64,000 nucleotides of DNA from Candidatus Limnocylindrales bacterium (GTDB lineage: Bacteria > Chloroflexota > Limnocylindria > Limnocylindrales > CSP1-4), in NCBI GenBank assembly GCA_049967415.1, contig JBMFSS010000002.1:87717-151716 (forward strand), read 5' to 3'. The position numbers and the translations under genes were made by a program. This document shows, piece after piece, positions 1 through 15,919 of this stretch (positions are counted from its first letter, which is position 1; each line of letters begins with the position of its first letter). A model generated the notes under the pieces. The model was not told where the DNA came from, did not search any database, and saw only the letters and a list, made by a program, of their open reading frames with translations.

Positions 1-1291
1 CAACCTCTGGCGATGCCGGCGTAGCCTCGGGGTGCGCGCCGCCGGGGAGGACCGCGGTCGGACTGCTCGCCAGCCGTGCCGCAAGTTCGGCCGCGATCCG
101 CGCCTCGTACTCCGCGGTATACCGGAAGGCGGCCGCCGCCAGCTGCTGTCGGGTCGGTGCACCCAGCCGCCCCTCCGCCCGCAGCTCGGCGAGGACCGCT
201 GGATAGTCCGACGGATCCGTTACGACGCCCACGCAGGCGTGATTCTTCGCGGCCGCGCGGATCAGCGTGGGGCCGCCGATGTCAATCTGCTCGACCAGCT
301 GCTCGAGCCCGGTCCCCGGCCGCGCGGCCGCCGCTGCGAACGGGTACAGGTTGACCACGACCAACTCGAAGGGATCGATTCCTTCTGCGGCCAGCTGCTC
401 GATGTGGTCCGGCCGGCGGAGATCGGCCAGCACCCCCGCCATGATCCGAGGGTGGAGCGTCTTGACCCGCCCGTCGAGCATCTCTGGGACACCCGTGACC
501 GCGGCGACGTCGGTCACCTCCAGCCCGGCCGCCCGCAGGATGCGCGCGGTGCCCTCGGTGGCGACCAGCGCAAACCCGAGCTCGGCAAGCCCCTGGGCAA
601 AGGCCTCCAGGCCAGTCCGGTCCGAGACCGAGAGCAAGGCCTGGCGTGGGCGCCCCGGCGGTGACGCCCGCCCGAGATCGAGTGCCGCCCGACCGTCAGC
701 CGTGACGGTGACCGCGCCGGCCGCCAGCAACGCGACGGCCCGCGGGAGGAGCCGGTGCTCGAGCGCCTGGAGCCGCCCGAAGAGCGACGCTTCGTCGTCT
801 CCGGGCAGAACCGCGAGCGTCTCTTGGAGGAGGATCGGGCCGCCGTCAGGCACCTCGTCGATCAGGCGGACCGTGACGCCGGTCACGCGAACCCCCGCCC
901 GGAGCGCATCGCGCACTGCTTGGGTACCGGGGAAGGCTGGCAGGAGGCTCGGATGCACCTTCAGCATGCGGCCGCGGAAGGCAGCCACCGTGGCCGGCCC
1001 AACGCTCCGCAGAAAGCCGGCCAGGGCCACGACTCGGGCGTTGGCCTCCGTCAGGGCTACGGCCACGGCCCGGTCCCACGCGTCCTCGTCGGGATGGTCT
1101 CCCGGCCGCACCACCGCGGTCGGGATCGACTGATCGCGGGCCCAATCGAGCGCCGGGCAGGGGCGATCGGCCAGGACGAGCACGACCCGCCCGCCCAACC
1201 AGCCCTCTCCTTGAGCGCGGCTAATCGCACGCAGGCTGCTGCCCCGGCCCGAGACGCAGACGGCGATGGGCACCGCGGGCCGCTCGCTCAT
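1..1291 (-). CDS. purN-purH: Phosphoribosylglycinamide formyltransferase (PurN) domain continuing in frame, with no stop, into the N-terminal (MGS-like) part of AICAR transformylase/IMP cyclohydrolase (PurH); 5'-partial at the window edge
   Basis: Minus-strand translation from the ATG at 1291..1289 reads MSERPAVPIAVCVSGRGSSLRAISRAQ...LVLADRPCPALDWARDQSIPTAVV (PurN N-terminus) and ...GRLQALEHRLLPRAVALLAAGAVTV (PurN C-terminus). It continues in the same frame as RPRQALLSVSDRTGLEAFAQGLAELGFALVATEGTARIL...IDIGGPTLIRAAAKNH, which is the PurH N-terminus with its signature motif. No in-frame stop occurs between the two domains (checked across 600-840). The ORF runs off the left edge, which is why it is missing from the ORF track. 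Confidence 0.75.
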   Translation of the reverse strand, partial: MSERPAVPIAVCVSGRGSSLRAISRAQGEGWLGGRVVLVLADRPCPALDWARDQSIPTAVVRPGDHPDEDAWDRAVAVALTEANARVVALAGFLRSVGPATVAAFRGRMLKVHPSLLPAFPGTQAVRDALRAGVRVTGVTVRLIDEVPDGGPILLQETLAVLPGDDEASLFGRLQALEHRLLPRAVALLAAGAVTVTADGRAALDLGRASPPGRPRQALLSVSDRTGLEAFAQGLAELGFALVATEGTARILRAAGLEVTDVAAVTGVPEMLDGRVKTLHPRIMAGVLADLRRPDHIEQLAAEGIDPFELVVVNLYPFAAAAARPGTGLEQLVEQIDIGGPTLIRAAAKNHACVGVVTDPSDYPAVLAELRAEGRLGAPTRQQLAAAAFRYTAEYEARIAAELAARLASSPTAVLPGGAHPEATPASPEV

Positions 1292-2598
1292 GGCGGCGCC
1301 GGGAGAAGCCACTCGAGGCGCGCCAGAATCGCCGGGACGTGGCGCAGGAAGACAGCCTCCTCGAAGCAAGCGGCCAGCGCATCGGCCGCGAGGCCGGCCG
1401 TGGCGGCATCGCCGGCCAGCACCTCGGCCAGCGGCCGGCCTTCCTCGGCTGCCCGGAGCGCGTTGCGCTGGACGATCGCATAGGCGGCCTCGCGCGAGAG
1501 GCCTGCCTGCTCCACCAACGCGAGGAGGACCCGACCCGAGGCATAGAGCCCCAGATCAGCGGCCAAGTTCGCCCGCATCCGTTCGGGGTGGACCCGGAGC
1601 CCCTCGAGCAGCGCCGTGAAGCTCGCGAGCATGTAGTCGAGCAGGATGGTGGCGTCGGGGAGGATCACCCGCTCGGCCGAGGAGTGGCTGATGTCCCGCT
1701 CATGCCAGAGCGCCTGGTTCTCAAGGGCCGCCAGGGCATAGGCCCGCAACAGGCGCGAGAGGCCCACCAGACGTTCGCTGTGGACCGGGTTGCGCTTGTG
1801 CGGCATCGCGCTCGAGCCCGCCTGCCCGGCCCGAAACGGCTCTTCGAGTTCGCCGATCTCGCTATGCGCGAGGTTGCGGATCTCGTCCGCGAAGCGTTCG
1901 ATCGAGCCCCCGGTGACAGCGAGGGCGGTGAGGAAGGCCGCGTGCCGATCGCGCTGCACGATCTGCGTACTGACCGGGTCGACCGCGAGTCCCAGGAAGG
2001 CCATCACCTCCGCCTCCAGGGTGGGATCGAGCTGGCTGTAGCTCCCGACCGGGCCCGAGAGCTTGCCGGTAGCGAGATCGGCCGCCGCGGCGCGGATCCG
2101 GGCGCGGTCCCGGTCGAGCTCGAAGGCCCAGCCGGCGAGCTTGAGGCCGAAGGTGATCGGCTCCGCGTGCACCGAATGGGTGCGCCCCAGCATGACCGTG
2201 TCGGCGTGCTCCCGGGCGCGTTGCACGACCACCCCGAGCGCGGCATCGAGGTCTGCGAGGAGCTGCTGGGCAGCCGCCTGGCACTGGAGAGCCAGGGCGG
2301 TGTCGAGCACGTCGCTGCTGGTCAGGCCCAGGTGCAGGTAGCGGCCCTCGGCGCCCACCGCCTCGGCAAGCTGGCGCACGAAGGCCACCACCTCATGGTC
2401 GGTGGTGCGCTCGAGGGTGGCGATCCGCGCGGGATCGACCCGCGCGCGGGCCGCGATCGCCTCGGCCGCCCCAGCGGGGACCTGGCCGTGGGCGGCCTGG
2501 GCCCGTACCACCGCCAGCTCGACGCGCAACATCGCTTCGACGCGCGCCTGCTCGGTCCAGATCGCGCCCATCTGGGGTCGGGTGTAGCGCGGGATCAC
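1288..2598 (-). CDS. purB: Adenylosuccinate lyase
   Basis: 436 aa. The N-terminus MIPRYTRPQMGAIWTEQAR matches the PurB start (B. subtilis MIERYSRPEMSAIW). The fumarase/aspartase-family motif GSSAMPHKRNP is present. Its stop overlaps the purN start (ATGA). Confidence 0.93.
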   Translation of the reverse strand: MIPRYTRPQMGAIWTEQARVEAMLRVELAVVRAQAAHGQVPAGAAEAIAARARVDPARIATLERTTDHEVVAFVRQLAEAVGAEGRYLHLGLTSSDVLDTALALQCQAAAQQLLADLDAALGVVVQRAREHADTVMLGRTHSVHAEPITFGLKLAGWAFELDRDRARIRAAAADLATGKLSGPVGSYSQLDPTLEAEVMAFLGLAVDPVSTQIVQRDRHAAFLTALAVTGGSIERFADEIRNLAHSEIGELEEPFRAGQAGSSAMPHKRNPVHSERLVGLSRLLRAYALAALENQALWHERDISHSSAERVILPDATILLDYMLASFTALLEGLRVHPERMRANLAADLGLYASGRVLLALVEQAGLSREAAYAIVQRNALRAAEEGRPLAEVLAGDAATAGLAADALAACFEEAVFLRHVPAILARLEWLLPAPP

Positions 2599-3998
2599 GC
2601 GAGCGGCGCTCCGTCACGGCCCGCTTTCGGCTCCGGCCCCGCGGCCGAGCCGGTGGCGGACGCCCCACTCGCCCACCACGCGCCAGGGAGCGTCGGCCCG
2701 TGGAGCGCGGGCCGGCGCGGCCGCTTGCCCCGAACGATCGTGGCGGTCCGATCCGCCCCCACGCTCACGATCGCGATCGGGGCGCCCGCCAGTTCCTCCA
2801 GTGCCTCGACATAGCGGCGGGCTGCGGCGGGCAACGCCTCGGCTCCACGCACCGCGCCCAGATCCTCGGTCCAGCCCTCAAAGGTCTCGTAGACCGGCTC
2901 GGCCCGCGCGAGGCGCTCGGCGGAAGCCGGCAGCTCCCGAACGAGCTGTCCATCGATCCGATACGCAACACAGACGCGCACCTGCGGGAGCCCCGAGAGG
3001 ATGTCGAGTTTGTTGAGCATGATGGCGCTGACGCTGTTGAGGGCCACCGCGCGGCGCAGCGGGACCGCGTCGAACCAGCCGCAGCGACGCCGACGCCCGG
3101 TGGTGGTCCCGAACTCGTGCCCCTGCTCCAGCAGGTAGCGGCCCGTGGCGTCGTTGAGCTCGGTGGGGAACGGCCCCGATCCAACCCGCGTCGCGTAGGC
3201 CTTCATCACCCCCACCACCTCATCGACCTGGAGCGGCCCGACACCACCCCCGGTGCAGGCCCCCCCGGCAATCGGGTTCGAGCTGGTGACGTACGGATAG
3301 GTGCCGTGGTCCAGATCGAGCAACGTGCCCTGGGCACCCTCCAGCAGGACGTGGCGCCCTGCCGCGAGGGCCGACTGGACCAGCCCGGTGGTATCCGCGA
3401 TGTGGGGACGGAGGCGCGCGCCCCAGTCGGTCGCGCGCTCGATCAGCGCCTCGAGCTCCACGGGGGCCAGGCCGTAGGTCTGCATCAGCACCGCGTTCTT
3501 CTCGGGCAGGACGCGCTCGAGGTGCGCCCGCAGCACGTCCGGCTCGAGCAGGTCCGCCATCCGGAGCCCGATGCGCCAGGCCCGGTCGGCGTAGGCGGGG
3601 CCGATGCCGCGACGAGTGGTCCCGATCTCCTCCCCCGCCAGGCGTGCCTCCATCGCCCCGTCGAGTGCCACGTGGTAGGGCAGGATCACGTGGGCCGCCT
3701 CGCTGACCCGGACCCGACCGGTCGCGACCCCGCGCGACTCGAGCATCGCGATCTCATCGAGGAGCGTCTGCGGGTTCACCACCACGCCGCCGCCGATGAT
3801 CGGGGTGACGTGCGGGTAGAGGACCCCGCTCGGAACCAGGTGCAGCGCGAAAACCGCTTCACCGAGCACGACCGTGTGCCCGGCGTTGTCGCCGCCCTGG
3901 TATCGGACCACCAAGTCGACCGACTCGGCGAGCAGATCGGTGGCCTTCCCCTTCCCCTCGTCGCCCCACTGGAGGCCGACCACGATCGTCACCGGCAT
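2595..3998 (-). CDS. purA: Adenylosuccinate synthetase
   Basis: The internal start MPVTIVVGLQWGDEGKGK (P-loop of PurA) is preceded by GAGGAGG. GGDNAGHTV and GIGPAYADR motifs are present. Its stop overlaps the purB GTG start (GTGA). The 82 codons upstream in the long ORF are an unsupported extension. Confidence 0.92.
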   Translation of the reverse strand: MPVTIVVGLQWGDEGKGKATDLLAESVDLVVRYQGGDNAGHTVVLGEAVFALHLVPSGVLYPHVTPIIGGGVVVNPQTLLDEIAMLESRGVATGRVRVSEAAHVILPYHVALDGAMEARLAGEEIGTTRRGIGPAYADRAWRIGLRMADLLEPDVLRAHLERVLPEKNAVLMQTYGLAPVELEALIERATDWGARLRPHIADTTGLVQSALAAGRHVLLEGAQGTLLDLDHGTYPYVTSSNPIAGGACTGGGVGPLQVDEVVGVMKAYATRVGSGPFPTELNDATGRYLLEQGHEFGTTTGRRRRCGWFDAVPLRRAVALNSVSAIMLNKLDILSGLPQVRVCVAYRIDGQLVRELPASAERLARAEPVYETFEGWTEDLGAVRGAEALPAAARRYVEALEELAGAPIAIVSVGADRTATIVRGKRPRRPALHGPTLPGAWWASGASATGSAAGPEPKAGRDGAPLA

Positions 3999-4074
3999 GT
4001 CAGGCGCCTCCTCGGAAATCGCAAGCAGCGCAGCAGCCGTGACCGCGGAGTGGGCCGCTCGCGACCATGGGCCA

Positions 4075-4767
4075 TCAGGGCCGGTGGCGGGCCCGGAGGA
4101 CCGCCAGCACGCGGCGGGGCTCAAGGCCCCGTTCGGCACAAAGGACGAGCGCATGGTATAGGAGGTCAGCGGTCTCGGCCGCAAGTGCCGCTTTGGTCTG
4201 CTCGCGATCCCCGGCGTTTTGGCTGCGGGCGGCCTCCGCGTCATCGCGGGCGGCCAGCAGCACCTCGGTTGCTTCCTCGGTCAGCTTGCGCGCCGCAGCG
4301 TCCACCCCCGCGTCAAGGAGCCGGGCCGTGTACGAACCCGCGGGCCGGTCGGCCGCCCGCTGCCCAATCGTCGCCCAGAGCGTCTCAAGCCAGGCAAATC
4401 CCTGCGGGTCCCAAGGCTGGGGCGGCAGCCGGTCAAAACAGCTGCGGGCGCCGGTATGGCAGGTGGGCCCGCTGGCCTCAGCCGTCACCAGGATGGCATC
4501 GGCGTCGCAGTCGAGCGCAAGCCCGCGCACGTTCAGTACGTTGCCGCTCGTCTCGCCCTTGCACCAGAGTCGCCCCCGGCTCCGCGAGTGGAAGTGTGCA
4601 AGGCCGGTCTCCAGCGTTGCCGCCAGCGCTTCGGCGTCCATGTACGCCAGCATCAGCACCGCCCCGTCCCCCGCGTCCCGGACCACGGCGGGAACCAGCC
4701 CGTCCGGTCCCCAACGGACCCGCGCAGGGTCGATGGCCGGGGCGATGGGCTCATCCGCGCGCATCAT
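4075..4767 (-). CDS. hisIE: Bifunctional phosphoribosyl-AMP cyclohydrolase / phosphoribosyl-ATP pyrophosphatase
   Basis: From MMRADEPI...: the HisI part has LAYMDAEAL...[16 protein letters not shown] and a CxxC...C zinc site. The C-terminal HisE (MazG-like) part has [12 protein letters not shown]...[10 protein letters not shown]. Its ATG overlaps the hisF stop (ATGA). Confidence 0.9.
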
Positions 4768-5597
4768 GCGGCCCGGGCCATCCGCACCGGGATGCCGGCT
4801 GCCGCCATGGCGTGCTTGACGGTGGCGATTCCGTGCAGGTCCCGGTGAAAGATGGATGCAGCCAGGACCGCGTCTGCCCCTCCTTCGAGGATTGCAGCCA
4901 CCAGGTCGTCCGGGCTGCCGGCTCCCCCTGACGCCACGACCGGGACCGAGACCGCCGCTGTCACCGCGCGCAGCAACGGCAGATCGTAGCCCCCGCGCGT
5001 CCCGTCCCGGTCGATGGACGTCAGGAGGATCTCGCCTGCGCCACGCGCGGCCGCCTCGGCAGCCCAGGCGACCACGTCCCGACCGGTCCCGGTTCGTCCG
5101 CCATGAACGACCACCTCCCAGTGCTGGCCTCGCGCCAGTGGCGCCGTTGCGGCGCCGCCGCGAGTCCCGCCGTCCAGGGGCGGGCCTCCGGGGTCGAGAC
5201 GCCGGGCGTCGATGGAGACCACCACGCATTGGCGGCCGAACCGTCGGGTGCAGCGATCGATCAGCGCCGGATCACCCACCGCTGCAGTGTTGATGGCGAC
5301 ACGATCGGCACCCGCCCGCAGAACCGCGCGCATGTCATCCACCGAGCGGACCCCGCCGCCGACGGTGAGGGGCACAAAAGCCCGTTTGGCCGTCCGCTCC
5401 ACCGCGTCGAGCAGGGTGCTCCGTCCTTCCACTGCGGCCGTGATGTCGAGCAAGACAATTTCGTCCGCGCCGGCCGCCGCATAGCGCGCCGCGAGCTCGG
5501 CCGGATCGCCTTCGTCCTGCAGTTCGACAAAGCGGGTTCCCTTGACAACCCGACCATCCCGCACGTCCAGACACGGGATCACCCGGCGGAGCAGCAT
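4764..5597 (-). CDS. hisF: Imidazole glycerol phosphate synthase cyclase subunit
   Basis: 277 aa; [20 protein letters not shown]...[11 protein letters not shown]...GGGVRS...ASGGAG, the classic HisF (beta/alpha)8 sequence. Confidence 0.95.
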
Positions 5598-6331
5598 CAG
5601 GGGCTCTCCTTCCGCAGGCCGCGAACGTCCCCCGCCGCGACCTCCACCAACCCGGAACGCGCGACCAGCTGCACGACGCCGGCAAGCAGACGCACTCCAT
5701 CCGGCCCGGATTTCTCCGGATGAAACTGCAGGCCCAGCAGACGCCCCTCAGCGACCACGCTTGCGAAGCGCCCGCCATGCTCTGTCTCGGCAACCACCAC
5801 CTGGGGGTCGGCAGGGACCGGCGCGAAGGAGTGCACGAAGTACATTGGCGCGTGGTCCGGCAGGCCCGCCAGCACCGGATGCCGCCGGACCGGGTCGACC
5901 GTGTTCCAGCCGATGTGGGGCAGGCGGGGTGCGTCGGGTAACCGGCGTGTCTCGCCGGCAATCCAGCCCAGCCCCCACGACCCATCTTCCTCCGACCGTC
6001 CAAAGAGCAGCTGCATCCCAAGGCAGATCCCCAGATACCAGGCCCCGTCAGAAACCGCGGCCTCCAGCGCCGCGTCCAGGCGGGCGCGCCGCAGGCGCCG
6101 GATCGCGGGCCCCTGGGCGCCCACCCCCGGCATCACCACCAGATCGGGCCGTCCCAGTTCCCTGCCGTTCCGCGCGACTCGGACGGTGGCCCCCACCAGC
6201 CGCAACGCCTGGCCGATACTGAGCAGGTTGCCTGCCCCGTAGTCGACGAGCGTGATCGACACCGTCTCGCCGGACTCGGCCACGGATCCGCCCGCACGGC
6301 TGTCGGCAAAGGGAGGCGGCTCAGAGCGCAT
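5597..6331 (-). CDS. hisH: Imidazole glycerol phosphate synthase glutaminase subunit
   Basis: Class-I GATase: [11 protein letters not shown]...PGVGAQG...GICLGMQLL (catalytic Cys)...HSF. The chosen start MRSEPPPF (ATG 6331) overlaps the hisB 3' end by 11 nt. The exact start is uncertain, and the long N-terminal extension in the ORF track is not supported. Confidence 0.85.
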
Positions 6332-6992
6332 CGCTTCCCTGCCCGGGCGCCTCGCCCAGCCGCCACTCCTCGCCCAGCCGCCCCTTCGTGGAGGCCACTC
6401 CCACCCTCCTCGGGTCCCGCGCCAGGGCCCCACGAAGGGCCCGCGCGAGGGCCTTGAAGGCCGCCTCGGCCACGTGGTGGTCGTTGGCCCCCGCCGCCTC
6501 CAGGTGGAGGGTGATTGCCGCCTCCCGCGCAAATGACTCGAGCGCGTGTGGGATCAGCTGGGTGGAGAGCGCCCCCACCCGCTCGCCGCGGAAAGCCACC
6601 CGCACCACGGCATAGGGCCGGCCGGAGCAGTCAACGGCCGCTTCCGCCAGCGCCTCATCCATTGGAACGCGCGCCTCGCCAAAGCGCTCGATCCCGACTC
6701 CATCACCGACGGCCTCTCGGACGGCGCGACCGAGGGTCAGTGCAACGTCCTCCACGCTGTGGTGCTCATCGATCTCCAGGTCGCCGGTGGCTGTGATCGC
6801 GAGATCGAAAAGCGCATGGTGCGCAAGGGCCGTCAGGAGGTGGTCGTAGAAGCCGACGCCGGTGGCGATCTGCGCCATCCCGGTTCCGTCGAGGTCCAGA
6901 ACGACCCGGACGTCGGTCTCGCGGGTGGTGCGACGCACCTCCGCACGGCGCCCGCGAGGACCGGCCCCGGGGGTTGCCGAAGCCGGGTTCAC
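6321..6992 (-). CDS. hisB: Imidazoleglycerol-phosphate dehydratase
   Basis: 223 aa; RRAEVRRTTRETDVRVVLDLDG...HH..E..H motifs of IGPD. The start codon overlaps the hisC stop. Confidence 0.9.
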   Translation of the reverse strand: MNPASATPGAGPRGRRAEVRRTTRETDVRVVLDLDGTGMAQIATGVGFYDHLLTALAHHALFDLAITATGDLEIDEHHSVEDVALTLGRAVREAVGDGVGIERFGEARVPMDEALAEAAVDCSGRPYAVVRVAFRGERVGALSTQLIPHALESFAREAAITLHLEAAGANDHHVAEAAFKALARALRGALARDPRRVGVASTKGRLGEEWRLGEAPGQGSDAL

Positions 6993-8167
6993 CGCCCTGC
7001 CTCCCGCGCACGCTCCCGCCGCGCTTGCCGGCCAGACCCGGCGCGGGGGGCGGGCTTCTCTCCGAGCGCCCTGACCAGCAGATCGTCCTGGTCGGGCGTT
7101 CGCACCGTCAGGCGCAGGAACCCACGGAGCGGCCCGCCTGCAAATCGGCGGGGCACGAGGCCGCTTCGGAGCAGCCGTTCGGCGGCCGCGTCCGCCCCCG
7201 CCGCGCCTCCTGCGTCGAGCAGGAGAAAGTTCGTCACGCTGTCGGGGACCCCCCAGCCGGCGGTCGCCAACGCGTCCCGGAGCCGCTGCCGTTCAGCCCT
7301 GATGGCAGCCACGTTGGCAGGCGCAAAGTTCGGATCGCGTAGTGCGCGGGTGGCGATCCACGCCGAGAGCACGCTCACGCTCCCCGGCGGCCGCACGCGT
7401 GCGAGGCGTGCGGCGTGCGGTGGATCAGCCAGCGCATATCCGACCCGGATCCCGGCCAGGCCGTGTGCCTTGGACAGCGTCCGCACCACCACGAGCCGCG
7501 GGAAAGCGGCCACCAGGCCAATCATGCTCTGGCCAGCGAAGTCACGATAGGCTTCGTCGACGACCACCGCGGGCCCGCCCTCCGGCAGCGCGGCGAGCCG
7601 CTGCAAGAGCCCCGGCAGCGCGTCCGGCCGCTCGGTGGTCCCGGTCGGATTGTTCGGGTCGCAGAGCCAGACGAGCGCCGCGCCCGCGGCGGCCCGCACC
7701 AACGCGTCGTGGTCCAGGCCAAACTCCGCCTCGGCCGGCCCGCGCGCCACCTCCACCACTGCCGCCCCGCGCTGGCGCGAGAGGATCGCGTACATGGCGT
7801 AGGTGGGTGGAGCGACCACGGCACGGCTCCCGGGCCTCAGCCAGGCCTTGGCCACGAGATCCAAGATCTCGTCAGCCCCCGCGCCCACCACGATGGCGCT
7901 GGGCTCGACCGCCTCCCGTGCAGCGATCGCTTCGGTCAGCTCGGCGTAGGTTGCATCGGGATACTCGTTGATGCGCTCGATCGGCGCAGCGCCCACCGCA
8001 CCGGGCAGCCAGGGCGGCCTCCGAGGCGAGGTGTTGGTGTCAAAACGGATCACCTGCTCGGGGTGCAGCTGGTAGGCCGCGGCAATCTGGGCGTCGCTCT
8101 CCTCCCATTGATATCCGGCAGCCTGATGTCTCCCATCGACGCTGGCGGCGACGCGGCTGGCACTCAC
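6989..8167 (-). CDS. hisC: Histidinol-phosphate aminotransferase
   Basis: 392 aa class-II aminotransferase with a PLP lysine context (LVVVRTLSKAHGLAGIRVGYA). It sits between hisD and hisB with 4-nt overlaps at both ends. Confidence 0.88.
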   Translation of the reverse strand: MSASRVAASVDGRHQAAGYQWEESDAQIAAAYQLHPEQVIRFDTNTSPRRPPWLPGAVGAAPIERINEYPDATYAELTEAIAAREAVEPSAIVVGAGADEILDLVAKAWLRPGSRAVVAPPTYAMYAILSRQRGAAVVEVARGPAEAEFGLDHDALVRAAAGAALVWLCDPNNPTGTTERPDALPGLLQRLAALPEGGPAVVVDEAYRDFAGQSMIGLVAAFPRLVVVRTLSKAHGLAGIRVGYALADPPHAARLARVRPPGSVSVLSAWIATRALRDPNFAPANVAAIRAERQRLRDALATAGWGVPDSVTNFLLLDAGGAAGADAAAERLLRSGLVPRRFAGGPLRGFLRLTVRTPDQDDLLVRALGEKPAPRAGSGRQARRERAREAGR

Positions 8168-9609
8168 GGTCGCGCGCTCCCGGCTCGCTGCCCTTTACTC
8201 TCGCCGGCACCCGCCCCACCGTCAGGCGACTGGGTCTCGAAGCGAATCTCGACAGCCCGACGGTGGGCCGGCAGTCCTTCGGCTTCCGCCACGGCCCCCA
8301 CCGCTGACGCGATTGACGCGAGACCGGCAGGGTCCAAAACCTGCGCCTGCATCCAGTGACCGAAGTCCGTGACCCCCAGCGGGCCCCGGACCCTGGCCAG
8401 TCGTCCGGTGGGCAGCACGTGATTGGACCCAGTGGCATAGTCACCGGCGGACTCGGGGGCCCAGGGGCCCAGGAAAACGCTTCCGGCGTGGTGAATCCGC
8501 GGGAGCAGCGCCAGGGCATCGCCGCAGGCCAGCGAGAGATGTTCGGGCGCATACTCGTTGACGAACGCGATCGCCTCGTCAATCCCGGCGGCCAGCACGA
8601 TCAGCCCGGAGGAGCGAAGCGAGGCGGCGAGAAGGCCGATGCGGCGCTGCTTGGGCAGCTGACGGTCGATCTCGAGCTGGACTCGCTCGGCAAGCTCGGT
8701 GTCGATGGTGACCAGCACGGCTGCTGAGTCAGGTCCGTGCTCGGCTTGACTCAGCAGGTCCGCGGCGACGTGCGCCGGGTTCGCCGTCTCATCCGCGAGC
8801 ACCAGGACTTCCGACGGACCGGCAGGCATGTCGATCCCGACGTCTCCGGTCACCTCGAGCTTGGCCGCCGTCACCCAGGCGTTCCCAGGACCCACAATCA
8901 GGTCGACCGGCACAACGGTTTCGGTCCCATAGGCCAGCGCCGCAATGGCCTGGGCTCCGCCGATCGCGTAGAACTCCTCGATCCCCAGCAGGCCGGCGGC
9001 ACCGAGCAGAACCGGCGAGATCCGCCCGTCACGCCCGGCAGGGCTTGCCACCGCGATCTGCCGGACACCCGCCAGGCGGGCCGGGATCACCCCCATCACC
9101 AGCGAGCTCGGGTACGCTGCCTCACCACCCGGCACGTAGATCCCGGCCCGGTCCACCGGGCGCCAGACCCGACCGACGCGGATCCCTGGCGCAACATCCA
9201 CCCACTCCTCGGGCTGGGGCACCTGCGCCCGATGGAACGTCTCGATATTCCGGATCATCAGCCGCAGCGCCTCCCGGAGCCCGGGGGCCAGACGCTCAGC
9301 CGCGCGGCACAGCACTTCGGGAGGAACGCGCAGCGGCGCCGGCGTCGCGGGCGGCGCGCCAGTCGGGATCCCCTCACTCCAGGCTCCGCCGAGGCTCGCA
9401 CCCAGCTCCCTCAACGCGGCGTCCTTTTCCGCTCGAACGCGCTCGACGACGGCGCGCGCCGGGACCCGCACCTCGGCCCCAGTCCCGGGTGATCGGGCAG
9501 TCAAGGCGCGGCGCTCGGCCGTGCTGATCGTGTCCAGGAAGACGCGCCGCAGCTGAACGTTTGCGACAGGACCGGTGCCATCCGGCCGATTTGCCTCGAT
9601 CCCGTTCAT
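8164..9609 (-). CDS. hisD: Histidinol dehydrogenase
   Basis: 481 aa; [25 protein letters not shown] and [25 protein letters not shown] motifs of HisD. Confidence 0.93.
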
Positions 9610-10454
9610 GGAAGGAGCAGCTCGACCGGGAGGACCAGGATCCCACTCGCACCGGCGGTACGCAGGCGGCCAAGGAGCCCCCAGACCTCGTCCGCACCCA
9701 CTACCGCATGGACCGCCACCATGCCCGGGCGGGCCAGGGGGACCACGCTGGGCGACCCCAGCCCCGGCAGCAGCGTTTCAATCTCCGGGAGAGCCCCGAT
9801 CGGTGCGTTCATCATCAAGTAACGACGCTCCCGGCCGTCAACCACCGCCCGCACCATGGTGACGACCTCATTGGCTGGACCGTCCACACCGGGGTTGGCC
9901 ACCAGGATCGCCTCGCTGGTGAGGAGCGTCCCAATCGAGCGGAGCCCGTTGACGAGCAGGGTCGAGCCAGTCGAAACCAGATCCACAATGGCGTCGGCCA
10001 CGCCCATCCGCGGCGCTACCTCTACCGCGCCGCTCAGGGGGACCAGGGTCACATCGATGCCGCGCTCGAGGAAGAAGCGGGCCGCATACGCCGGGTGCGA
10101 GGTGGCAATGCGACATCCAGCCAGATCCTCGAGTGTCTGGCCCGGCGCATCGGTGGGCACCGCGGCATCCAGCCGACAGCGCCCATAGTGAAGCGCCGCA
10201 CGCGTCTCCAGCGGGCGCCCGGACTCGGCCAGCAGGTTGGTCCCGGTGATGCCGATGTCGGCGACGCCGTCACCCACGAACTCCACCACGTCCTCGGTCC
10301 GGATGAACAGGATGTCCAACGGGAAATTGGCGCAATGACTGACCAGGGAGCGCTCGCGGGCGTCGAAGACGAGCCCCGCATCGTGGAGCAGCGCCAGAGT
10401 CGGTTCCAGCAGCCGCCCTTTGTTGGGGACCGCCAGGCGCAGCCGTGTTGTCAT
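9606..10454 (-). CDS. hisG: ATP phosphoribosyltransferase, long form
   Basis: Internal start MTTRLRLAVPNKGRL (cat at 10452-10454). 283 aa including a C-terminal regulatory domain. The upstream part of the track ORF is an Arg-rich artefact. Confidence 0.9.
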   Translation of the reverse strand: MTTRLRLAVPNKGRLLEPTLALLHDAGLVFDARERSLVSHCANFPLDILFIRTEDVVEFVGDGVADIGITGTNLLAESGRPLETRAALHYGRCRLDAAVPTDAPGQTLEDLAGCRIATSHPAYAARFFLERGIDVTLVPLSGAVEVAPRMGVADAIVDLVSTGSTLLVNGLRSIGTLLTSEAILVANPGVDGPANEVVTMVRAVVDGRERRYLMMNAPIGALPEIETLLPGLGSPSVVPLARPGMVAVHAVVGADEVWGLLGRLRTAGASGILVLPVELLLP

Positions 10455-10858
10455 GATTGAGCGGCCTCGACGCCGACGGCGGCGCTGACCCCGCCTCCCG
10501 CGACTCCAGGGGATCGGCCGATTGGCCCGCCACCGATCAGGCTCGGAAGCGGCTCCCCGCGGCGCGCGGCCCGCCGCTCGAGCGCCTGTCGATAGCCGCC
10601 CATGCCATGGTGCAGCCACCCGGCAATCCGGGTCACCGTGGCGGTGCTTGCACCCGAGCGCCGCGCTACCTCACCGTAGTGGAGCCCCTCTGCGAGCAAC
10701 CGGACTACCTGCCAGCGCTGCGCCAAATCGTGCAACTCTCCCAGCGTGCACAGATCGCGGAGGAAGCGCGCAGCCTCGTCCCGATCACGCAAATCCACGA
10801 TCGCATCGAGGAGTTCGTCGGTCTCTTGCGTCTGCCACGTCTCGCGCGCTTCGATCAC
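10451..10858 (-). CDS. TrpR-like YerC/YecD-family putative DNA-binding protein, translationally coupled upstream of hisG
   Basis: The core ...ETDELLDAIVDLRDRDEAARFLRDLCTLGELHDLAQRWQVVRLLAEGLHYGEVARRSGASTATVTRIAGWLHHGMGGYRQA matches the YerC/YecD (TrpR-related) family signature (TLxELxxxAQRxxVxxLLxxGxxYxExxxxTGxSTATIxR). The probable GTG start (VIEARETW...) is preceded by GGGAGAC. The stop overlaps the hisG ATG. The start coordinate is uncertain by a few nt. Confidence 0.7.
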   Translation of the reverse strand: MIEARETWQTQETDELLDAIVDLRDRDEAARFLRDLCTLGELHDLAQRWQVVRLLAEGLHYGEVARRSGASTATVTRIAGWLHHGMGGYRQALERRAARRGEPLPSLIGGGPIGRSPGVAGGGVSAAVGVEAAQS

Positions 10859-10924
10859 GCTGTCTCCCGTTCTTTTGCGCGGTCTCCTATGGGCCAGCCG
10901 ACGCCGCGGCTGAGCGGCGACCCG

Positions 10925-10962
10925 TCCTACGATGCTGCTATAGTAGCATAGTAACATGCTAG
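10925..10962. promoter_or_regulatory. AT-rich dyad-symmetric element in the divergent yerC-like/hisG - hisA promoter region (candidate operator)
   Basis: The sequence gctgcTATAGTAGCATAGTAACATGCTAG contains overlapping inverted repeats TGCTA-N3-TAGCA and TAGCAT-N6-ATGCTA with a CTAG core. It is the only AT-rich patch in about 1 kb of ~70% GC DNA, and it lies between divergent genes. Confidence 0.45.
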
Positions 10963-11759
10963 ATGAAGCAGATGACAGGATCCGGGGGACGTTCCCATCC
11001 AACACGGCTAGGCCACCGTTTCTCCTGATCCCGGCCATCGACTTGCTCGGGGGGCAGGTCGTTCGGCTCAGACATGGTGATCGCAGTCAAGTCACCGTCT
11101 ACCCCGTGGCGCCGTCTGAAGCGGTGTGGCAGTGGGCTGCGGCGGGCGCCGACCTGGTCCACGCGGTGGATCTCGACGGGGCCTTTGCCGGACGGGTCCA
11201 CCAGTGGATGGCGCTGCAGAGCGTCGCGGCAACTGCCTTGGCGGCCGGGATCGAGTGCGAGGTCGCCGGGGGGGTCCGCGATGAAGCGACGGCCGCGCGC
11301 CTTCTTGCGATGGGCGCGGCCCGGGTGGTGCTCGGAACTGCCATGTTGCTCGATCCGGCCCTGGCGCGACGTCTGGTCGAGCGGCATGGCAGCGCGCGGA
11401 TCGTTGCGGCGCTTGATGTTCGCGCTGGGATCGCCGTCGGCCAAGGATGGGCCGACGGCGCCCCGGGCCGGGAAGTGGATCTCGCCCTGGCCACGCTCGT
11501 CAGCGCCGGAGTGACCCAGGTCGAGGTGACCGCTATCGCGCGTGACGGCACCCTGAGCGGGCCTGACCTTGCGCTCCTCAGGCGAGTGCGGCAGGCGGCC
11601 CCGGACGTTACGCTGATCGCCTCGGGAGGCATCCGACAACCCGAGGAGATCAGCGCCCTCCGTGACCTGGGTTGCAACGGGGCCATCCTGGGACGGGCCC
11701 TGTATGAGGGAGCACTGGGCCTTGCTGACGCGCGCGCGGCGCTGGCCGGAACCTCGTAG
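10956..11759 (+). CDS. hisA: 1-(5-phosphoribosyl)-5-[(5-phosphoribosylamino)methylideneamino]imidazole-4-carboxamide isomerase
   Basis: LLIPAIDLLGGQVVRL...DLDGAF...IASGGI motifs of HisA. It is transcribed divergently from the rest of the his operon. The true start may be downstream of the first ATG, because the N-terminal ~20 aa are atypical. Confidence 0.88.
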   Translation: MLDEADDRIRGTFPSNTARPPFLLIPAIDLLGGQVVRLRHGDRSQVTVYPVAPSEAVWQWAAAGADLVHAVDLDGAFAGRVHQWMALQSVAATALAAGIECEVAGGVRDEATAARLLAMGAARVVLGTAMLLDPALARRLVERHGSARIVAALDVRAGIAVGQGWADGAPGREVDLALATLVSAGVTQVEVTAIARDGTLSGPDLALLRRVRQAAPDVTLIASGGIRQPEEISALRDLGCNGAILGRALYEGALGLADARAALAGTS

Positions 11760-11802
11760 CGAATCAAGCAGCCGGCCCGGGCTGCCGCCGGCTCGGTCCC
11801 CG

Positions 11803-13149
11803 TCACTCGCTCGAAATGCGCTGGCGCCGCAGCAGATCCGAAGGCCGTGGTCGCGCTCGAACCAGGGTGGCCTTGCCCGCGCTGACCGCGACCTCGGCCG
11901 GCCCGGTGTGTGAGAGGAACCAGGGCATCGATTGGGTGAAACCGTAGGCCCCGGCGTCGAGGAACGCGACAAGGTCCCCCGGCTGGGGGCGGGGGAACGC
12001 CCGTGCCTGCCCGAGAATGTCGAGCGCGGTGCAGAGTGGTCCGGTCATGAGGACCGCCACGGGCTCCCGAGCAGCCGCACCGTCGTGCGCGACCAGTTGC
12101 ATCCGGTGCATCCGGCCAGGGAGCGCAGGCGCCAGGAAATGGTTGATGCCGCCGTCGAGGATCGTGATGCAGCGCCCCTCGCGGTCCTTCACGTCCACAA
12201 CCCGAGCGAGATACGCGCCGATAGGGCCGCCCAAGTACCGACCGGGCTCAATCAGGATCCGCAGCTCCTGCGCTGCCGGGTCCCCCGCTGCACCGTGCAG
12301 GACGTCCCGCAGGCCACCGGCGAAGGAGCCCAGGTCGAGCGGCGCCTCGCCTTCCCGGTACGGGATCCCGAGCCCGCCGCCGACGTCGGCGAGCTGGAGC
12401 CGAAAGCCGGCTGCCGCGGCCAGCCGCCGCCCAGCCGCCACCGACCAAGCCGCATGGGCCGCCAGACGCACTGGGTCTCGAACCGCTCCCACCGCGAACA
12501 CGTGAACACCGAGCGGGACGAGCGCTGGCGACCGGACGGCATGCCGTGCTGCGGCCACGGCATCGTCCCAGGTCATCCCGAAATGCTCTGTCGGCCCCTG
12601 GTGATCTGGGCCGCCGGCGTCCGGGGGAGCGGCCAGGCGAAAGAGGAGTCCCACCGGCTGTTGCCCCGAGGACGCAGTGCGCTCGACCCGCCGGACCTCG
12701 CCAGGCGAATCAACGGCGATCGCACGCACCCCGGCCCGCACGGCCTGCCGGAGCAGCGCCTGGCTCTTGCCAGGCCCGGTGACGACGATCGCTCCGGGGG
12801 GTACCCCAGCGCGCAGCGCTGCGGCGAGCTCGCCTGCCGACGACACGTCCGCACCGACGCCGGTCCGTGCGAGCCGGGCAATGACGGCAAGCGACGGGTT
12901 CGCCTTGACCGCGTAGGCGATCTCCACCCGGTCCGGCAGAGCGGCGCGCAGGGCGCCGGCCCGGCGCTCGAGAGCGTCGAGGTCGTAGACGTAGAGTGGC
13001 GTCCCGAATTGCCGGGCAAGCGAGCGCGGGTCGAGGCCCGCCAAGCGACCGGCGCGCCAAATCTCGTCCTCCTCCTCCGCCGGTCCCCGGTCGCCCTCAA
13101 CGCGCCCTGCGGCGAGAGCAGCGGCGGCCGGCGCCGACCGGGGCGTCAC
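11803..13149 (-). CDS. lysA: Diaminopimelate decarboxylase
   Basis: 448 aa fold-III PLP decarboxylase: FGTPLYVYDLDALERRA...YAVKANP...GGGLGIPY...EPGRYL. Confidence 0.88.
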   Translation of the reverse strand: MTPRSAPAAAALAAGRVEGDRGPAEEEDEIWRAGRLAGLDPRSLARQFGTPLYVYDLDALERRAGALRAALPDRVEIAYAVKANPSLAVIARLARTGVGADVSSAGELAAALRAGVPPGAIVVTGPGKSQALLRQAVRAGVRAIAVDSPGEVRRVERTASSGQQPVGLLFRLAAPPDAGGPDHQGPTEHFGMTWDDAVAAARHAVRSPALVPLGVHVFAVGAVRDPVRLAAHAAWSVAAGRRLAAAAGFRLQLADVGGGLGIPYREGEAPLDLGSFAGGLRDVLHGAAGDPAAQELRILIEPGRYLGGPIGAYLARVVDVKDREGRCITILDGGINHFLAPALPGRMHRMQLVAHDGAAAREPVAVLMTGPLCTALDILGQARAFPRPQPGDLVAFLDAGAYGFTQSMPWFLSHTGPAEVAVSAGKATLVRARPRPSDLLRRQRISSE

Positions 13150-14000
13150 CGGAGCGCCTCCTCGATCGCCGTACGCGCGGTCGTGGACGCGTCTCGCTGC
13201 TTGACGATGGCCGCGCAGTGGAGGCCGATCCCGTGCTCCGCCGCGAACGCGCCAGCTGCGGGACGGATGGCCGGCACCACTACCGCACCCCGGGGGACCG
13301 TCAGCGGGTTCGCCGGGGTCCCCTGCAGGAGGCGGCTCTGTGGCAGGTCATACAGCCGGCTGGTCCCGGTGAGAATCGTCCCCGCCGCCAGCACTGCCCC
13401 TCGGCCGACAAGGACGCCGTCGAAGAGCCCGCACTGCGCCCCGACAAAGACGTCGTCCTCGATGATCACGGGGCGCGCGTTGGGCGGCTCGAGGACCCCG
13501 CCGATCTGTACCCCTGCCGCGAGGTGCACCCGTGCACCGACCTGCGCGCAGGACCCTACCAGGACGTGCGAGTCGACCATGGCTCCCTCCCCGATCCAGG
13601 CGCCCACGTTGATGAAGGAGGGCGGCATAACCACGACCCCAGGCCCGAGGTAGGAACCGGCGCGCACGCTTGTCCCTCCCGGCACGATCCGCCAAGGGCC
13701 GCCCGCGAGCCGTTTGGTTGGCAGACGCGTTCGGTCCTGGAACTCCAGCAAGCCCCCGAGGCGCCATCCGGTGGTTGCCGAGTCCCGGAAAAGCGTCAGC
13801 AACTCCTCGCGCAGCGCGACGTCGACCCGCCAACCACCGGGAGCTGCCGGGTCCGGCCATGCTGCGCGGCGGCGGCCCGCGTCGAGGTCATCGAGAAGCT
13901 GCTGCCCAGCACCGGCGTGCGGCGCCGGCAGTGCGGGACCCCTTGCAGCGGGCCGCACCGCCGCCGACGCCAAGCGGTGCCGAGGCGCCCGGCCAGTCAC
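13146..14000 (-). CDS. dapD: 2,3,4,5-tetrahydropyridine-2,6-dicarboxylate N-acyl(succinyl)transferase
   Basis: Left-handed beta-helix hexapeptide repeats (GPGVVVMPPSFINVGAWIGEGAMVDSHVLVGSCAQVGARVHLAAGVQIGG) and a WRIVPGGTSVR motif typical of actinobacterial-type DapD. It lies in a dap/lys operon with 4-nt overlaps. Confidence 0.78.
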   Translation of the reverse strand: MTGRAPRHRLASAAVRPAARGPALPAPHAGAGQQLLDDLDAGRRRAAWPDPAAPGGWRVDVALREELLTLFRDSATTGWRLGGLLEFQDRTRLPTKRLAGGPWRIVPGGTSVRAGSYLGPGVVVMPPSFINVGAWIGEGAMVDSHVLVGSCAQVGARVHLAAGVQIGGVLEPPNARPVIIEDDVFVGAQCGLFDGVLVGRGAVLAAGTILTGTSRLYDLPQSRLLQGTPANPLTVPRGAVVVPAIRPAAGAFAAEHGIGLHCAAIVKQRDASTTARTAIEEALR

Positions 14001-14989
14001 GCGACCCCTCCGCCCGCCCCGGCCCCGGCAACGCCGGGACTAGCCGGCTCGATCAGGCCGCCCTCCTGCAGCAGCACCCCCAGGCGGCCCCGAGCGGGCT
14101 CCTCCAGAGGGAGCAACGGGAGCCGCAGACGATCCTCGATCCAGCCCATCTGCGCCAGTGCTGACTTGACCGGGACGGGGTTCGGACCGCCCCGAAAGTT
14201 GGCCCGGAAGAGCGGCAGCCACCGGTCGTGCAGCTGGCGTGCTCGTGCCCAATCCCCGGCCCGCGCAGCGGCACACAGCGCGGCCATCTCGGCCGGGATC
14301 TCGTTGGATGCCACGCTGATCACGCCGTCGCCACCCATCGCCAGGACCGCCAGGGTCCAGGCGTCGTCGCCCGCCATCACCGCAAAGCCCGCCGGTCGGT
14401 CGCGGATGATGGTCGCGATCTGCTCCAGATTCCCCGACGCCTCCTTGACGGCCACGATCCGGGGGTGCTCGGCCAGCCGCAGGGTGGTCTCGGCTTCGAC
14501 GTTCGAACCGGTGCGTGATGGCACGTTGTAGATGACGATCGGGAGGCCGCCTTCGTCCGCGACGGCCGTGAAGTGCGCGGCGAGCATCCGCTGGTCGGGC
14601 CGGTTGTAGTAAGGGGCCACTATCAGGGCTGCATCGGCCCCCAACTCGGCCGCGCGGCGCGTGGCGCGGATGGTGGCCGCCGTGTCGTTGGTCCCGGTCC
14701 CCGCGATCACGGTTGCGTGGCGGTGCGCGCCTTCCACCGCGGCAGTGATCACGCGCTCGCGTTCGGCGGGCGCCAGGGTGGGTGATTCGCCCGTGGTGCC
14801 ACAGGGAACCAGGCCGTCGATCCCGAGGCGGACTTGCCACTCGATCAGGCGGCGCAGCGCCGACTCGGCGAGGCGCCCTTCAGCATCGAACGGCGTGACG
14901 AGGGCCGTGAACGCGCCGGCGATCCGCGGCCTCGGGCGGGGCGCGGTCGGCTGATCGGGGGTGTTCGTCGCGTGTTGCAGCGTGGACAT
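13997..14989 (-). CDS. dapA: 4-hydroxy-tetrahydrodipicolinate synthase
   Basis: TALVTPF...GLVPCGTTGESPTL...YNRP...AVKEASG (Schiff-base Lys) motifs of DapA. Confidence 0.9.
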   Translation of the reverse strand: MSTLQHATNTPDQPTAPRPRPRIAGAFTALVTPFDAEGRLAESALRRLIEWQVRLGIDGLVPCGTTGESPTLAPAERERVITAAVEGAHRHATVIAGTGTNDTAATIRATRRAAELGADAALIVAPYYNRPDQRMLAAHFTAVADEGGLPIVIYNVPSRTGSNVEAETTLRLAEHPRIVAVKEASGNLEQIATIIRDRPAGFAVMAGDDAWTLAVLAMGGDGVISVASNEIPAEMAALCAAARAGDWARARQLHDRWLPLFRANFRGGPNPVPVKSALAQMGWIEDRLRLPLLPLEEPARGRLGVLLQEGGLIEPASPGVAGAGAGGGVA

Positions 14990-15046
14990 CGGGTTGCTCC
15001 TCTTGTGCTTGCGTCGGCGTGGATGGGTGTCTGCTCCCAGTCGCCC

Positions 15047-15862
15047 TCAGGGCAGGGCAGGAGCAGCGGTTGCCACGGCGCGGTTGGCGGTGCTGGCCAA
15101 CGGCGCCGTCAGGCGGGCTGCGGCGATCAGCTCGTCAACTACCTCGTCGAACGAATGGATCCCCGCCGCTCGCGGGGCCGCGAGCAGCCATTCGGCGGCC
15201 GCGATCGCCCCCGCCGCGTAGGCCGATCGGTCGCGCGCGGTCAATCGCAGCTCGAACGTCTCGCCCGGCGCGTCGAACCCAACCAGGTGCATCCCGGGAG
15301 CCCACCCCGCGCGCACAGCGACCACTTCGAGCTCGTCGGTTCCCGGCGGGCCACCCCGCCCGGGCTCGGCCCGGCGACGCTTGACGGGATGCGCGGCAAG
15401 GATCCGGCGTGCGAGCTCGAGTGCCGTCCCAGAGGGCCGATCGGCTTTCCCCCTCCGGTGCCATTCGACGACGTAGGGGTCGTAGTCGGGAAGAAACCCG
15501 AGCATTTGCGTGGCGCCCTCAGCGAGGCGAGCCAGGACGTTGATGCCGGGGCTGAAGTTGCTGGCCGCCACCGCGCTGGCGCCATGCTGGTCGAGCAGGG
15601 CGGTCAACTCGGAGGGGGTGACCGTCCAGGCGGTGGTGCCAATGACGAAGCGCCGGCATCCGCCCGCCAGGGCCGAGGCGACGTTGGGCAGGACCGCGGC
15701 ACCACGGGAGAACTCAAAAGCCACCTCGACCGTGGCGAAGGCGCCGGGTGGATGCGAAGTCCGCGGCCGTCCAAGGACGCCGCATACCTCGGCCCCGCGC
15801 CCAGCGAGGGCATCCGCCACGGCCCTGCCCATCGGCCCATCCCCCAGTACGATCGCGCGCAT
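15047..15862 (-). CDS. dapB: 4-hydroxy-tetrahydrodipicolinate reductase
   Basis: The start MRAIVLGDGPMGRAV (Rossmann GxxGxxG) is preceded by GAGGAGGA. EWHRRGKADRPSGTA is the DapB signature (E.HH..K.D.PSGTA). Confidence 0.88.
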   Translation of the reverse strand: MRAIVLGDGPMGRAVADALAGRGAEVCGVLGRPRTSHPPGAFATVEVAFEFSRGAAVLPNVASALAGGCRRFVIGTTAWTVTPSELTALLDQHGASAVAASNFSPGINVLARLAEGATQMLGFLPDYDPYVVEWHRRGKADRPSGTALELARRILAAHPVKRRRAEPGRGGPPGTDELEVVAVRAGWAPGMHLVGFDAPGETFELRLTARDRSAYAAGAIAAAEWLLAAPRAAGIHSFDEVVDELIAAARLTAPLASTANRAVATAAPALP

Positions 15863-15919
15863 TTCGCCGTCCTCCTCGCGGAGGGGCCTGGAGCGGAGGT
15901 CCGATGGTCCGGACACACG

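Follow-up and report, generated by a model that had tools for sequence, protein, structure and literature searches.

A predicted HisR operator shared by a hisR-led histidine operon and divergent hisA in an uncultured Chloroflexota bacterium

The DNA stretch considered here (the window, 64,000 nt) belongs to Candidatus Limnocylindrales bacterium of the phylum Chloroflexota (GenBank assembly GCA_049967415.1, contig JBMFSS010000002.1, positions 87,717 to 151,716 of the forward strand) and contains a histidine biosynthesis locus headed by a small regulatory gene, hisR. On the minus strand the genes follow one another in the order hisR-hisG-D-C-B-H-F-IE, the part after hisG spanning 4075..9609, and hisA, the sole pathway gene outside this string, is divergent and separated from hisR by 97 bp (Table 1). 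The hisR stop codon and the hisG start codon overlap in an ATGA, which implies translational coupling of the two genes; with hisR as first cistron, the repressor and the enzymes would thus be made from the same mRNA. The divergent hisR/hisA region holds the sole dip in G+C content within 9000-13000, with values of 0.40-0.475 at 10920-10979 against a background of 0.6-0.85. A preliminary description of the locus had reported a ~135-aa TrpR-like protein of the YerC/YecD type, its position at the head of the histidine operon, its coupling to hisG and the only AT-rich stretch of the area in the divergent region, all of which was borne out. The comparisons presented here further support the prediction that the AT-rich dyad is a conserved HisR operator.

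Judged from its sequence, the small gene before hisG is a member of the HisR family, here in an uncultured Chloroflexota bacterium. Searches with Pfam and NCBIfam (TIGR) models at their curated cut-offs returned matches to PF01371 (Trp_repressor; E=1.1e-21, 77.2 bits, cut-off 27) and to TIGR02531 (yecD_yerC; 79.3 bits, cut-off 42.2), the latter spanning residues 10-95 of the protein and positions 2-87 of the 88 in the model. Among solved structures, 3G1C (E. eligens HisR) is the nearest relative (E=1.9e-18, end-to-end alignment). The helix-turn-helix signature is present (H60-Y61...G69-A70-S71-T72-A73-T74-V75-T76-R77), its region aligns without gaps to 3G1C, 3KOR and 3FRW, and the motif Y..GASTAT[VI]TR is invariant or nearly so in an alignment of 22 Limnocylindria-type relatives (alignment A1). 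The published HisR signature consists of a conserved Tyr before the turn, followed by GASTAT[IV][ST]R in the recognition helix (PMC9413887). The start at GTG 10858 agrees with 21 homologues, all beginning MxxPxExWQT at the same place; a longer mechanical open reading frame (ORF; 195 aa, from 11038) has no such backing.

The TrpR-like domain comprises residues 1-95 and is followed by a non-conserved, Gly/Ala/Pro-rich tail (residues 96-135). Tails of this composition, not conserved in sequence and with no evident function, were observed throughout the clade (window 10454-10570; L001-L080, see below), in which HisR proteins are 96-193 aa long in total (median 110; 80 loci); the published family has been described as <100 aa. 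NCBI still labels these Chloroflexota proteins only as “YerC/YecD family TrpR-related protein”; a protein identical to that of the window is recorded there for a metagenome-assembled genome of a Candidatus Limnocylindrales bacterium, an order of the class Limnocylindria.

B. subtilis YerC and its orthologues have been named HisR and described as TrpR-family repressors that act on genes for the biosynthesis and transport of histidine (Ashniev et al., BMC Genomics 2022, PMC9413887). In that survey HisR regulons and boxes were reconstructed in 492 genomes (395 Firmicutes and 97 others), 3G1C was used as the HisR structure, and Ruminococcus gnavus HisR was shown by fluorescence polarization to bind its 20-bp box in vitro only when L-histidine was present. 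Chloroflexi are not mentioned in its text or supplementary tables (PMC9413887). The preliminary statement that no function has been established for YerC/YecD proteins is thus outdated, as HisR has been named and assayed.

The hisR locus was compared in the best 80 of >588 relatives (one genome per species), all of them Chloroflexota (Limnocylindria) and designated L001-L080; gene order was read by tblastn with the His proteins of the window. Whether YerC-like genes adjoin hisG or hisA in relatives had been proposed as a check, and the outcome is clearly positive: hisR lies beside a his gene in 80/80 loci. The layout with hisA divergent from hisR-hisG-(hisD)-hisC is present in 74 of these loci and hisR-hisC in the other six (L038, L045, L053, L058, L059 and L066), where hisG is not the next gene and hisA is not upstream. 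The stop codon of hisR overlaps the next start codon as NTGA (4 nt) in 69 loci and as TGATG (1 nt) in three, and the leader upstream of hisR is 14-190 nt long among the relatives.

A profile of the regions upstream of hisR, comprising the window and the 80 loci (81 regions), revealed the palindrome cGTnTTAGCAyGCTAnTACg in every one of them, so that the proposed pairing of gene and operator is conserved in the relatives. The palindrome is part of a 34-bp family block, TGcTAGCGTnTTAGCAyGCTAcTAyGcTAGCAyg, which is symmetric about the centre of GCAyGC, between positions 9 and 10. T2, T5A6 and T13A14 are invariant in all 81 regions, the TA steps being 8 bp apart, and TA-TA spacings peak at 8, 16 and 24 nt (238, 148 and 71 pairs, compared to ~11 in shuffles). 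In the six hisR-hisC loci the box is kept, shortened (TAAC-type units) in four of them; a box that follows hisR into loci without hisA and hisG is what would be expected of the repressor's own operator.

In the window the block reads atcTAGCATGTTACTATGCTACTATAGCAGCATc in the hisR direction, and the main TA steps of the box lie at 10952-10953 and 10944-10945. The family weight matrix (20 bp, 28.7 bits of information) gives the core box 26.5 bits. With a second matrix trained on distant relatives only (L011-L080, 70 loci), from which the window and its close relatives were left out, the core box scores 23.0 bits; this matrix ranks 10938-10957 (minus strand) first in the whole window, also at 23.0 bits, the next unrelated match reaching 16.5 bits. 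The second-best matrix match in the window, GTGGTTCCGCGCTACTACGA at 51436-51455 (minus strand), was rejected: it scores 16.8 bits, lies in a DUF3417/glycogen-phosphorylase-like coding region and is taken as chance because its score is within the range of the shuffled controls (maximum 20.5).

The window block shows some features of its own. The centre of the dyad ATGCTgCTATAGtAGCAT lies one 8-bp unit toward hisR from the family-wide centre, which makes this dyad a possible second dimer position, and a second dyad, TAGCAT-N6-ATGCTA, occupies 10944-10961. The outer TAGC is at 10961-10958 and the fourth unit is degenerate, with CAGCA in place of TAGCA. The possibility that the window has one 8-bp repeat unit more than its closest relatives was considered and discarded, since MAFFT aligns them without gaps. 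A single CTAG is found in the block (10959-10962), as part of an outer unit that can also be read as a -10 element. In the preliminary description the operator had been built from TGCTA/TAGCA half-sites around a CTAG core; the half-sites agree with the family core, but CTAG is only this outer unit.

The box appears to be specific to hisR. When 1.2 million positions of the 80 loci were scanned with the family matrix, all 253 matches above 12 bits fell within 330 nt upstream of hisR, and neither the 600 kb of related loci nor the window held a box-like sequence at any other promoter. Metagenome contigs were also scanned with the exact core-box pattern, which returned 120 stretches, 63 of them with the box next to hisR. 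Restricting the set to the 72 stretches with a G+C content of at least 0.66, 63 adjoin hisR, seven lie at hisA or at a partial hisR cut by the contig end, and two are located elsewhere. Of these two, one has its core match directly upstream of moaC-mog-like genes (L155:186-204), the other at the stop codon/3' end of a small ORF that adjoins a gene for a LuxR-type response regulator (L167:4425-4443). Neither was accepted as a target, since both have only one core match and there is no common theme; the two may have arisen by chance or may be targets not yet recognised.

Comparison with the published boxes points in the same direction. HisR boxes reported for Proteobacteria (Xanthomonadales, Legionellales, Francisella, Caulobacterales/Maricaulis; PMC9413887) are nearly the same in sequence as the Limnocylindria consensus, and the sites before proteobacterial hisR-hisG operons, tgtattagcacgctaataca (Pseudoxanthomonas), tgtgttagcgcgctaacacg (Maricaulis) and tgtattagcgcgctaaaacg, are in the same register as the Limnocylindria box. 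Scored with the Limnocylindria matrix, 29 published proteobacterial/Elusimicrobium sites reach up to 26.2 bits (median 14), the 99.9th percentile for random 20-mers being -8.1; for 18 published sites of Actinobacteria, Synergistetes and Dictyoglomi (cacTTTA-N6-TAAAgtg type) the median is -4.3 bits. Box and gene order together indicate that the Limnocylindria system uses a “proteobacterial-type” HisR box with proteobacterial gene order. Autoregulation is implied in both groups. In contrast to the proteobacterial systems, hisA is outside the operon in Limnocylindria and divergent from the same box, additional TAGC/GCTA units in 8-bp phase lie on either side of the box, and the protein carries a variable C-terminal tail.

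Turning to the promoters, the family profile shows the box flanked by 8-bp-phased TAGC/GCTA units, with TGnTAGCGT on both strands (on the hisR side at positions -6 to +2); roughly half of the loci also have TTGAC 18 nt upstream of the TGnTAGCGT on the hisR side. These flanking units can be read as mirror-image extended -10 elements facing hisR and hisA. With the usual ~7-nt spacing from the -10 elements, both start sites would fall at the dyad centre, and one repressor site between such elements could shut both promoters.

It is therefore considered highly probable that a TrpR-fold HisR repressor, with L-histidine as co-repressor, acts on a palindrome shared by the promoters of the hisR operon and hisA. 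A HisR dimer carrying L-histidine would bind the palindromic box (core 10939-10958, block 10931-10964), which would overlap the -10 regions and likely start sites of two face-to-face promoters, one for the hisR-hisIE operon and one for hisA. Occupancy of the central 20 bp by a dimer would exclude RNA polymerase from both promoters, and at plentiful histidine both units would be switched off, that is, the whole pathway and the repressor itself. We infer the binding by this protein, the promoter positions and the number of dimers from the comparisons above, histidine as effector being carried over from the R. gnavus experiment. The preliminary proposal of an autoregulated histidine repressor fits the family membership, the linkage to his genes in all 80 loci and an operator that is present in every relative and matches published HisR boxes; a TrpR-like, CTAG-cored operator is, on the other hand, not its best description.

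Several observations weigh against this proposal. A simple scan of 10700-11200 detected no canonical sigma-70 -35/-10 promoter, so that the promoter assignments are tentative and follow from the extended -10 matches and the family profile, and promoter function could also account for a large part of the conserved block. The central half-sites of the window (TTACTA/TGCTA) are weaker than those of the family (TTAGCA/yGCTA), and its best dyad lies one 8-bp unit off the family-wide centre. The sole HisR assayed in vitro is from a Firmicute and ~40% identical to the window protein over the domain. Finally, residue 34 is Arg in all 22 aligned relatives and Glu or Asp in the three solved Firmicute homologues, in which the acidic residues of the helix holding the aligned position have been suggested to contact histidine (PMC9413887).

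The last of these observations bears on the effector. A HisR-family repressor may act on this operator in response to a signal other than free histidine, such as a pathway intermediate, 5-aminoimidazole-4-carboxamide ribonucleotide (AICAR/ZMP), phosphoribosyl pyrophosphate (PRPP) or a purine-related signal, an option that we regard as improbable. The histidine pathway releases AICAR into purine synthesis, as is established biochemistry, and purA and purB directly follow hisIE on the same strand. Arg34 in the clade would also agree with a different ligand, and the long form of HisG already provides direct feedback by histidine. However, the sole HisR assayed responds to L-histidine (PMC9413887), the detectable regulon consists of his genes alone, and, apart from this residue, the window protein and its Firmicute homologues agree in the putative effector helix.

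The AT-rich palindrome could instead represent overlapping divergent promoters only, the YerC-like protein acting elsewhere or having another role. The outer conserved positions, which read TGnTAGCGT on both strands, and the TTGAC on the hisR side would be in line with this, and any promoter would look AT-rich in a genome of 70% G+C. Nevertheless, the most invariant positions (T5A6 and T13A14) and the central GCAyGC sit between the two -10 elements, and -10 function does not explain them. In addition, the central 20 bp are a near base-for-base match to HisR boxes of other phyla, the box is retained in the six hisR-hisC loci, where hisA and hisG are missing from this place, and no other promoter of the sequences scanned carries anything similar. 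This makes a promoters-only explanation very improbable. Lastly, a true TrpR orthologue, that is, a tryptophan repressor lying beside his genes by chance, might be suggested by the same fold and Pfam family, a weak TIGR01321 match and the CTAG in the dyad, but has next to no chance of being correct and was rejected on the NCBIfam cut-off and gene context: with TIGR01321, an equivalog model, the protein stays at 25.4 bits, far short of the 67.25-bit cut-off, whereas it passes the YerC/YecD model; there is no trp or aro gene among the neighbours examined (his, pur and dap/lys genes), his linkage holds in every relative, and the family box is built on TAGC/GCTA, the block having a single CTAG and not CTAG-N4-CTAG.

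Control at the RNA level was considered as well and rejected. No T-box or his leader was found by Rfam (run in E-value mode) in 10400-11200, the 87-nt hisR leader (5' untranslated region) folds no better than shuffled sequences (z=+1.58), and no run of His codons is visible in the leader upstream of the first his gene.

Returning to the proposed HisR operator, the start of hisA deserves attention. The best NCBIfam match of its product is HisA (TIGR00007, 183 bits), under the 229-bit cut-off of that model. ATG 10956 is the only in-frame ATG/GTG/TTG ahead of the conserved N-terminus and lies inside the operator block, implying ~20 non-conserved N-terminal residues on the window HisA. The window shares this start, at operator position 2, with L001, L002 and L006, and the sole candidate is at position 10 in nine other loci; where it is inside the block, it always follows a TAGCrT hexamer by 6 nt. 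This geometry fits a leaderless mRNA, so that, depending on the start-codon assignment, hisA is possibly leaderless, with its start codon within the operator.

A more elaborate arrangement can be drawn from these features, which we put forward tentatively and hold to be rather doubtful as a whole. Two or three HisR dimers would occupy the four-unit, 8-bp-phased array (TA at -3, 5, 13 and 21) in tandem and with cooperativity, as in TrpR, and the array would also contain two face-to-face extended -10 promoters with starts meeting at the dyad centre and a leaderless hisA, one palindrome thereby serving as operator, both promoters and start codon. Dimers of TrpR can reportedly bind in tandem at 8-bp intervals, as Lawson & Carey are said to have described in Nature in 1993.

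E. coli TrpR belongs to the same Pfam family, has the same dimeric helix-turn-helix fold, and is an autoregulated, amino-acid-activated repressor with a promoter-overlapping operator, as is proposed here for HisR. The TrpR operator likewise contains TA-bearing tetramers 8 bp apart; these are CTAG, whereas the HisR tetramer is TAGC/GCTA. TrpR targets trp and aro genes, while HisR here adjoins his genes, and the tryptophan-contacting residues of TrpR are not conserved in HisR (PMC9413887). Synergistetes possess hisC-hisR units (PMC9413887), which are echoed by the six Chloroflexota hisR-hisC loci with a box upstream, although the order of the two genes is reversed and the window itself lacks this arrangement.

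Firmicute HisR proteins (B. subtilis YerC, R. gnavus, E. eligens 3G1C, S. aureus 3KOR) share the TIGR02531 family, the fold and ~40% identity over the whole domain with the window protein, together with the conserved helix-turn-helix signature and a 20-bp palindrome with TA steps 8 bp apart, but their box consensus, cacTTTAnnnnnnTAAAgtg, differs from the Limnocylindria box and is of the type seen in the Actinobacteria, Synergistetes and Dictyoglomi sites scored above. The hisR gene of most Firmicutes lies apart from the his genes, and its regulon includes hisXYZ* transporters (PMC9413887), whereas no HisR site at a transporter gene was found in the Limnocylindria material scanned (80 loci and the window).

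As a separate observation from the metagenome scan, low-GC gut-metagenome contigs (L138:8108-8126, L140:6165-6183; also L157) carry the core TTAGCACGCTAATACG between a TTGACT -35 and a TAAAAT -10 element. In L138 and L140 the box is followed by an ABC operon with genes for a solute-binding protein, a permease and an ATPase, which looks like a HisR-controlled hisXYZ*-type histidine transporter of another phylum.

The idea of a histidine repressor is right but not new, as the family, its effector and the repressor-first layout had already been described. What is new is the phylum, the divergent hisA under the same box, the symmetric promoter-operator layout, the possibly leaderless hisA and the possible tandem occupancy. 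The HisR regulon is hereby extended to Chloroflexota, outside the 2022 survey; no new biological question is opened by this and a specialist would not be surprised. The occurrence of the same operator in Chloroflexota and Proteobacteria is of use in the annotation of the many metagenome-assembled genomes of Limnocylindria, and raises the question whether the hisR-hisG module spread by horizontal transfer. Two face-to-face promoters on one palindrome would also offer a compact test case for a small repressor controlling a split pathway.

Table 1. Features of the hisR/hisA locus and adjoining genes (window coordinates; promoter and operator elements are predictions)
Feature	Position	Strand	Remarks
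hisR	10451..10858	-	135-aa YerC/YecD-family TrpR-like regulator; GTG start 10858, TGA stop 10451-10453
Shine-Dalgarno-like GGGAGA	10863..10868	-	4 nt upstream of hisR GTG; read directly from the sequence
ATGA overlap	10451..10454	-	hisR stop TGA (10451-10453) / hisG ATG (10452-10454); sequence
Conserved regulatory block	10931..10964	.	operator positions -6 to +27, counted in hisR direction; column profile of 81 regions
Core 20-bp HisR box (predicted)	10939..10958	-	operator positions 0-19; CATGTTACTA/TGCTACTATA
Dyad ATGCTgCTATAGtAGCAT	10932..10949	.	palindromic at 16/18 positions
Candidate extended -10 for hisA, TGcTATAGT	10936..10944	+	candidate from the sequence
Alternative -10 for hisA, TAGCAT	10944-10949	+	followed by 6 nt, then ATG 10956; would make the mRNA leaderless
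Candidate -10s for the hisR operon	10940..10961	-	TAGCAT (10961-10956), TGtTACTAT (10956-10948), TGcTACTAT (10948-10940); putative
hisG	9606..10454	-	long form with HisG_C regulatory domain; Pfam HisG + HisG_C, TIGR00070, TIGR03455
hisD	8164-9609	-	Pfam Histidinol_dh
hisC	6989-8167	-	Pfam Aminotran_1_2
hisB	6321-6992	-	ORF translation only
hisH	~5597-6270	-	Pfam GATase; start approximate
hisF	4764-5597	-	Pfam His_biosynth
hisIE	4075 to ~4790	-	Pfam PRA-CH, PRA-PH; start approximate
hisA	10956..11759	+	divergent; Pfam His_biosynth E=1.9e-56
purA	2598-4244	-	adenylosuccinate synthetase
purB	1291-2598	-	adenylosuccinate lyase
Diaminopimelate-decarboxylase-like gene	11806-13149	-	
Hexapeptide acyltransferase, dapD-like	13149-14000	-	
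dapA	14000-14989	-	
dapB	15050-15916	-	

Two further gene groups adjoin the locus. The purine genes purA and purB, located directly after hisIE, may be co-transcribed with the his operon. On the other side, a lysine-branch cluster on the minus strand (11806-15916), comprising the last four genes of Table 1, adjoins hisA and converges on it.

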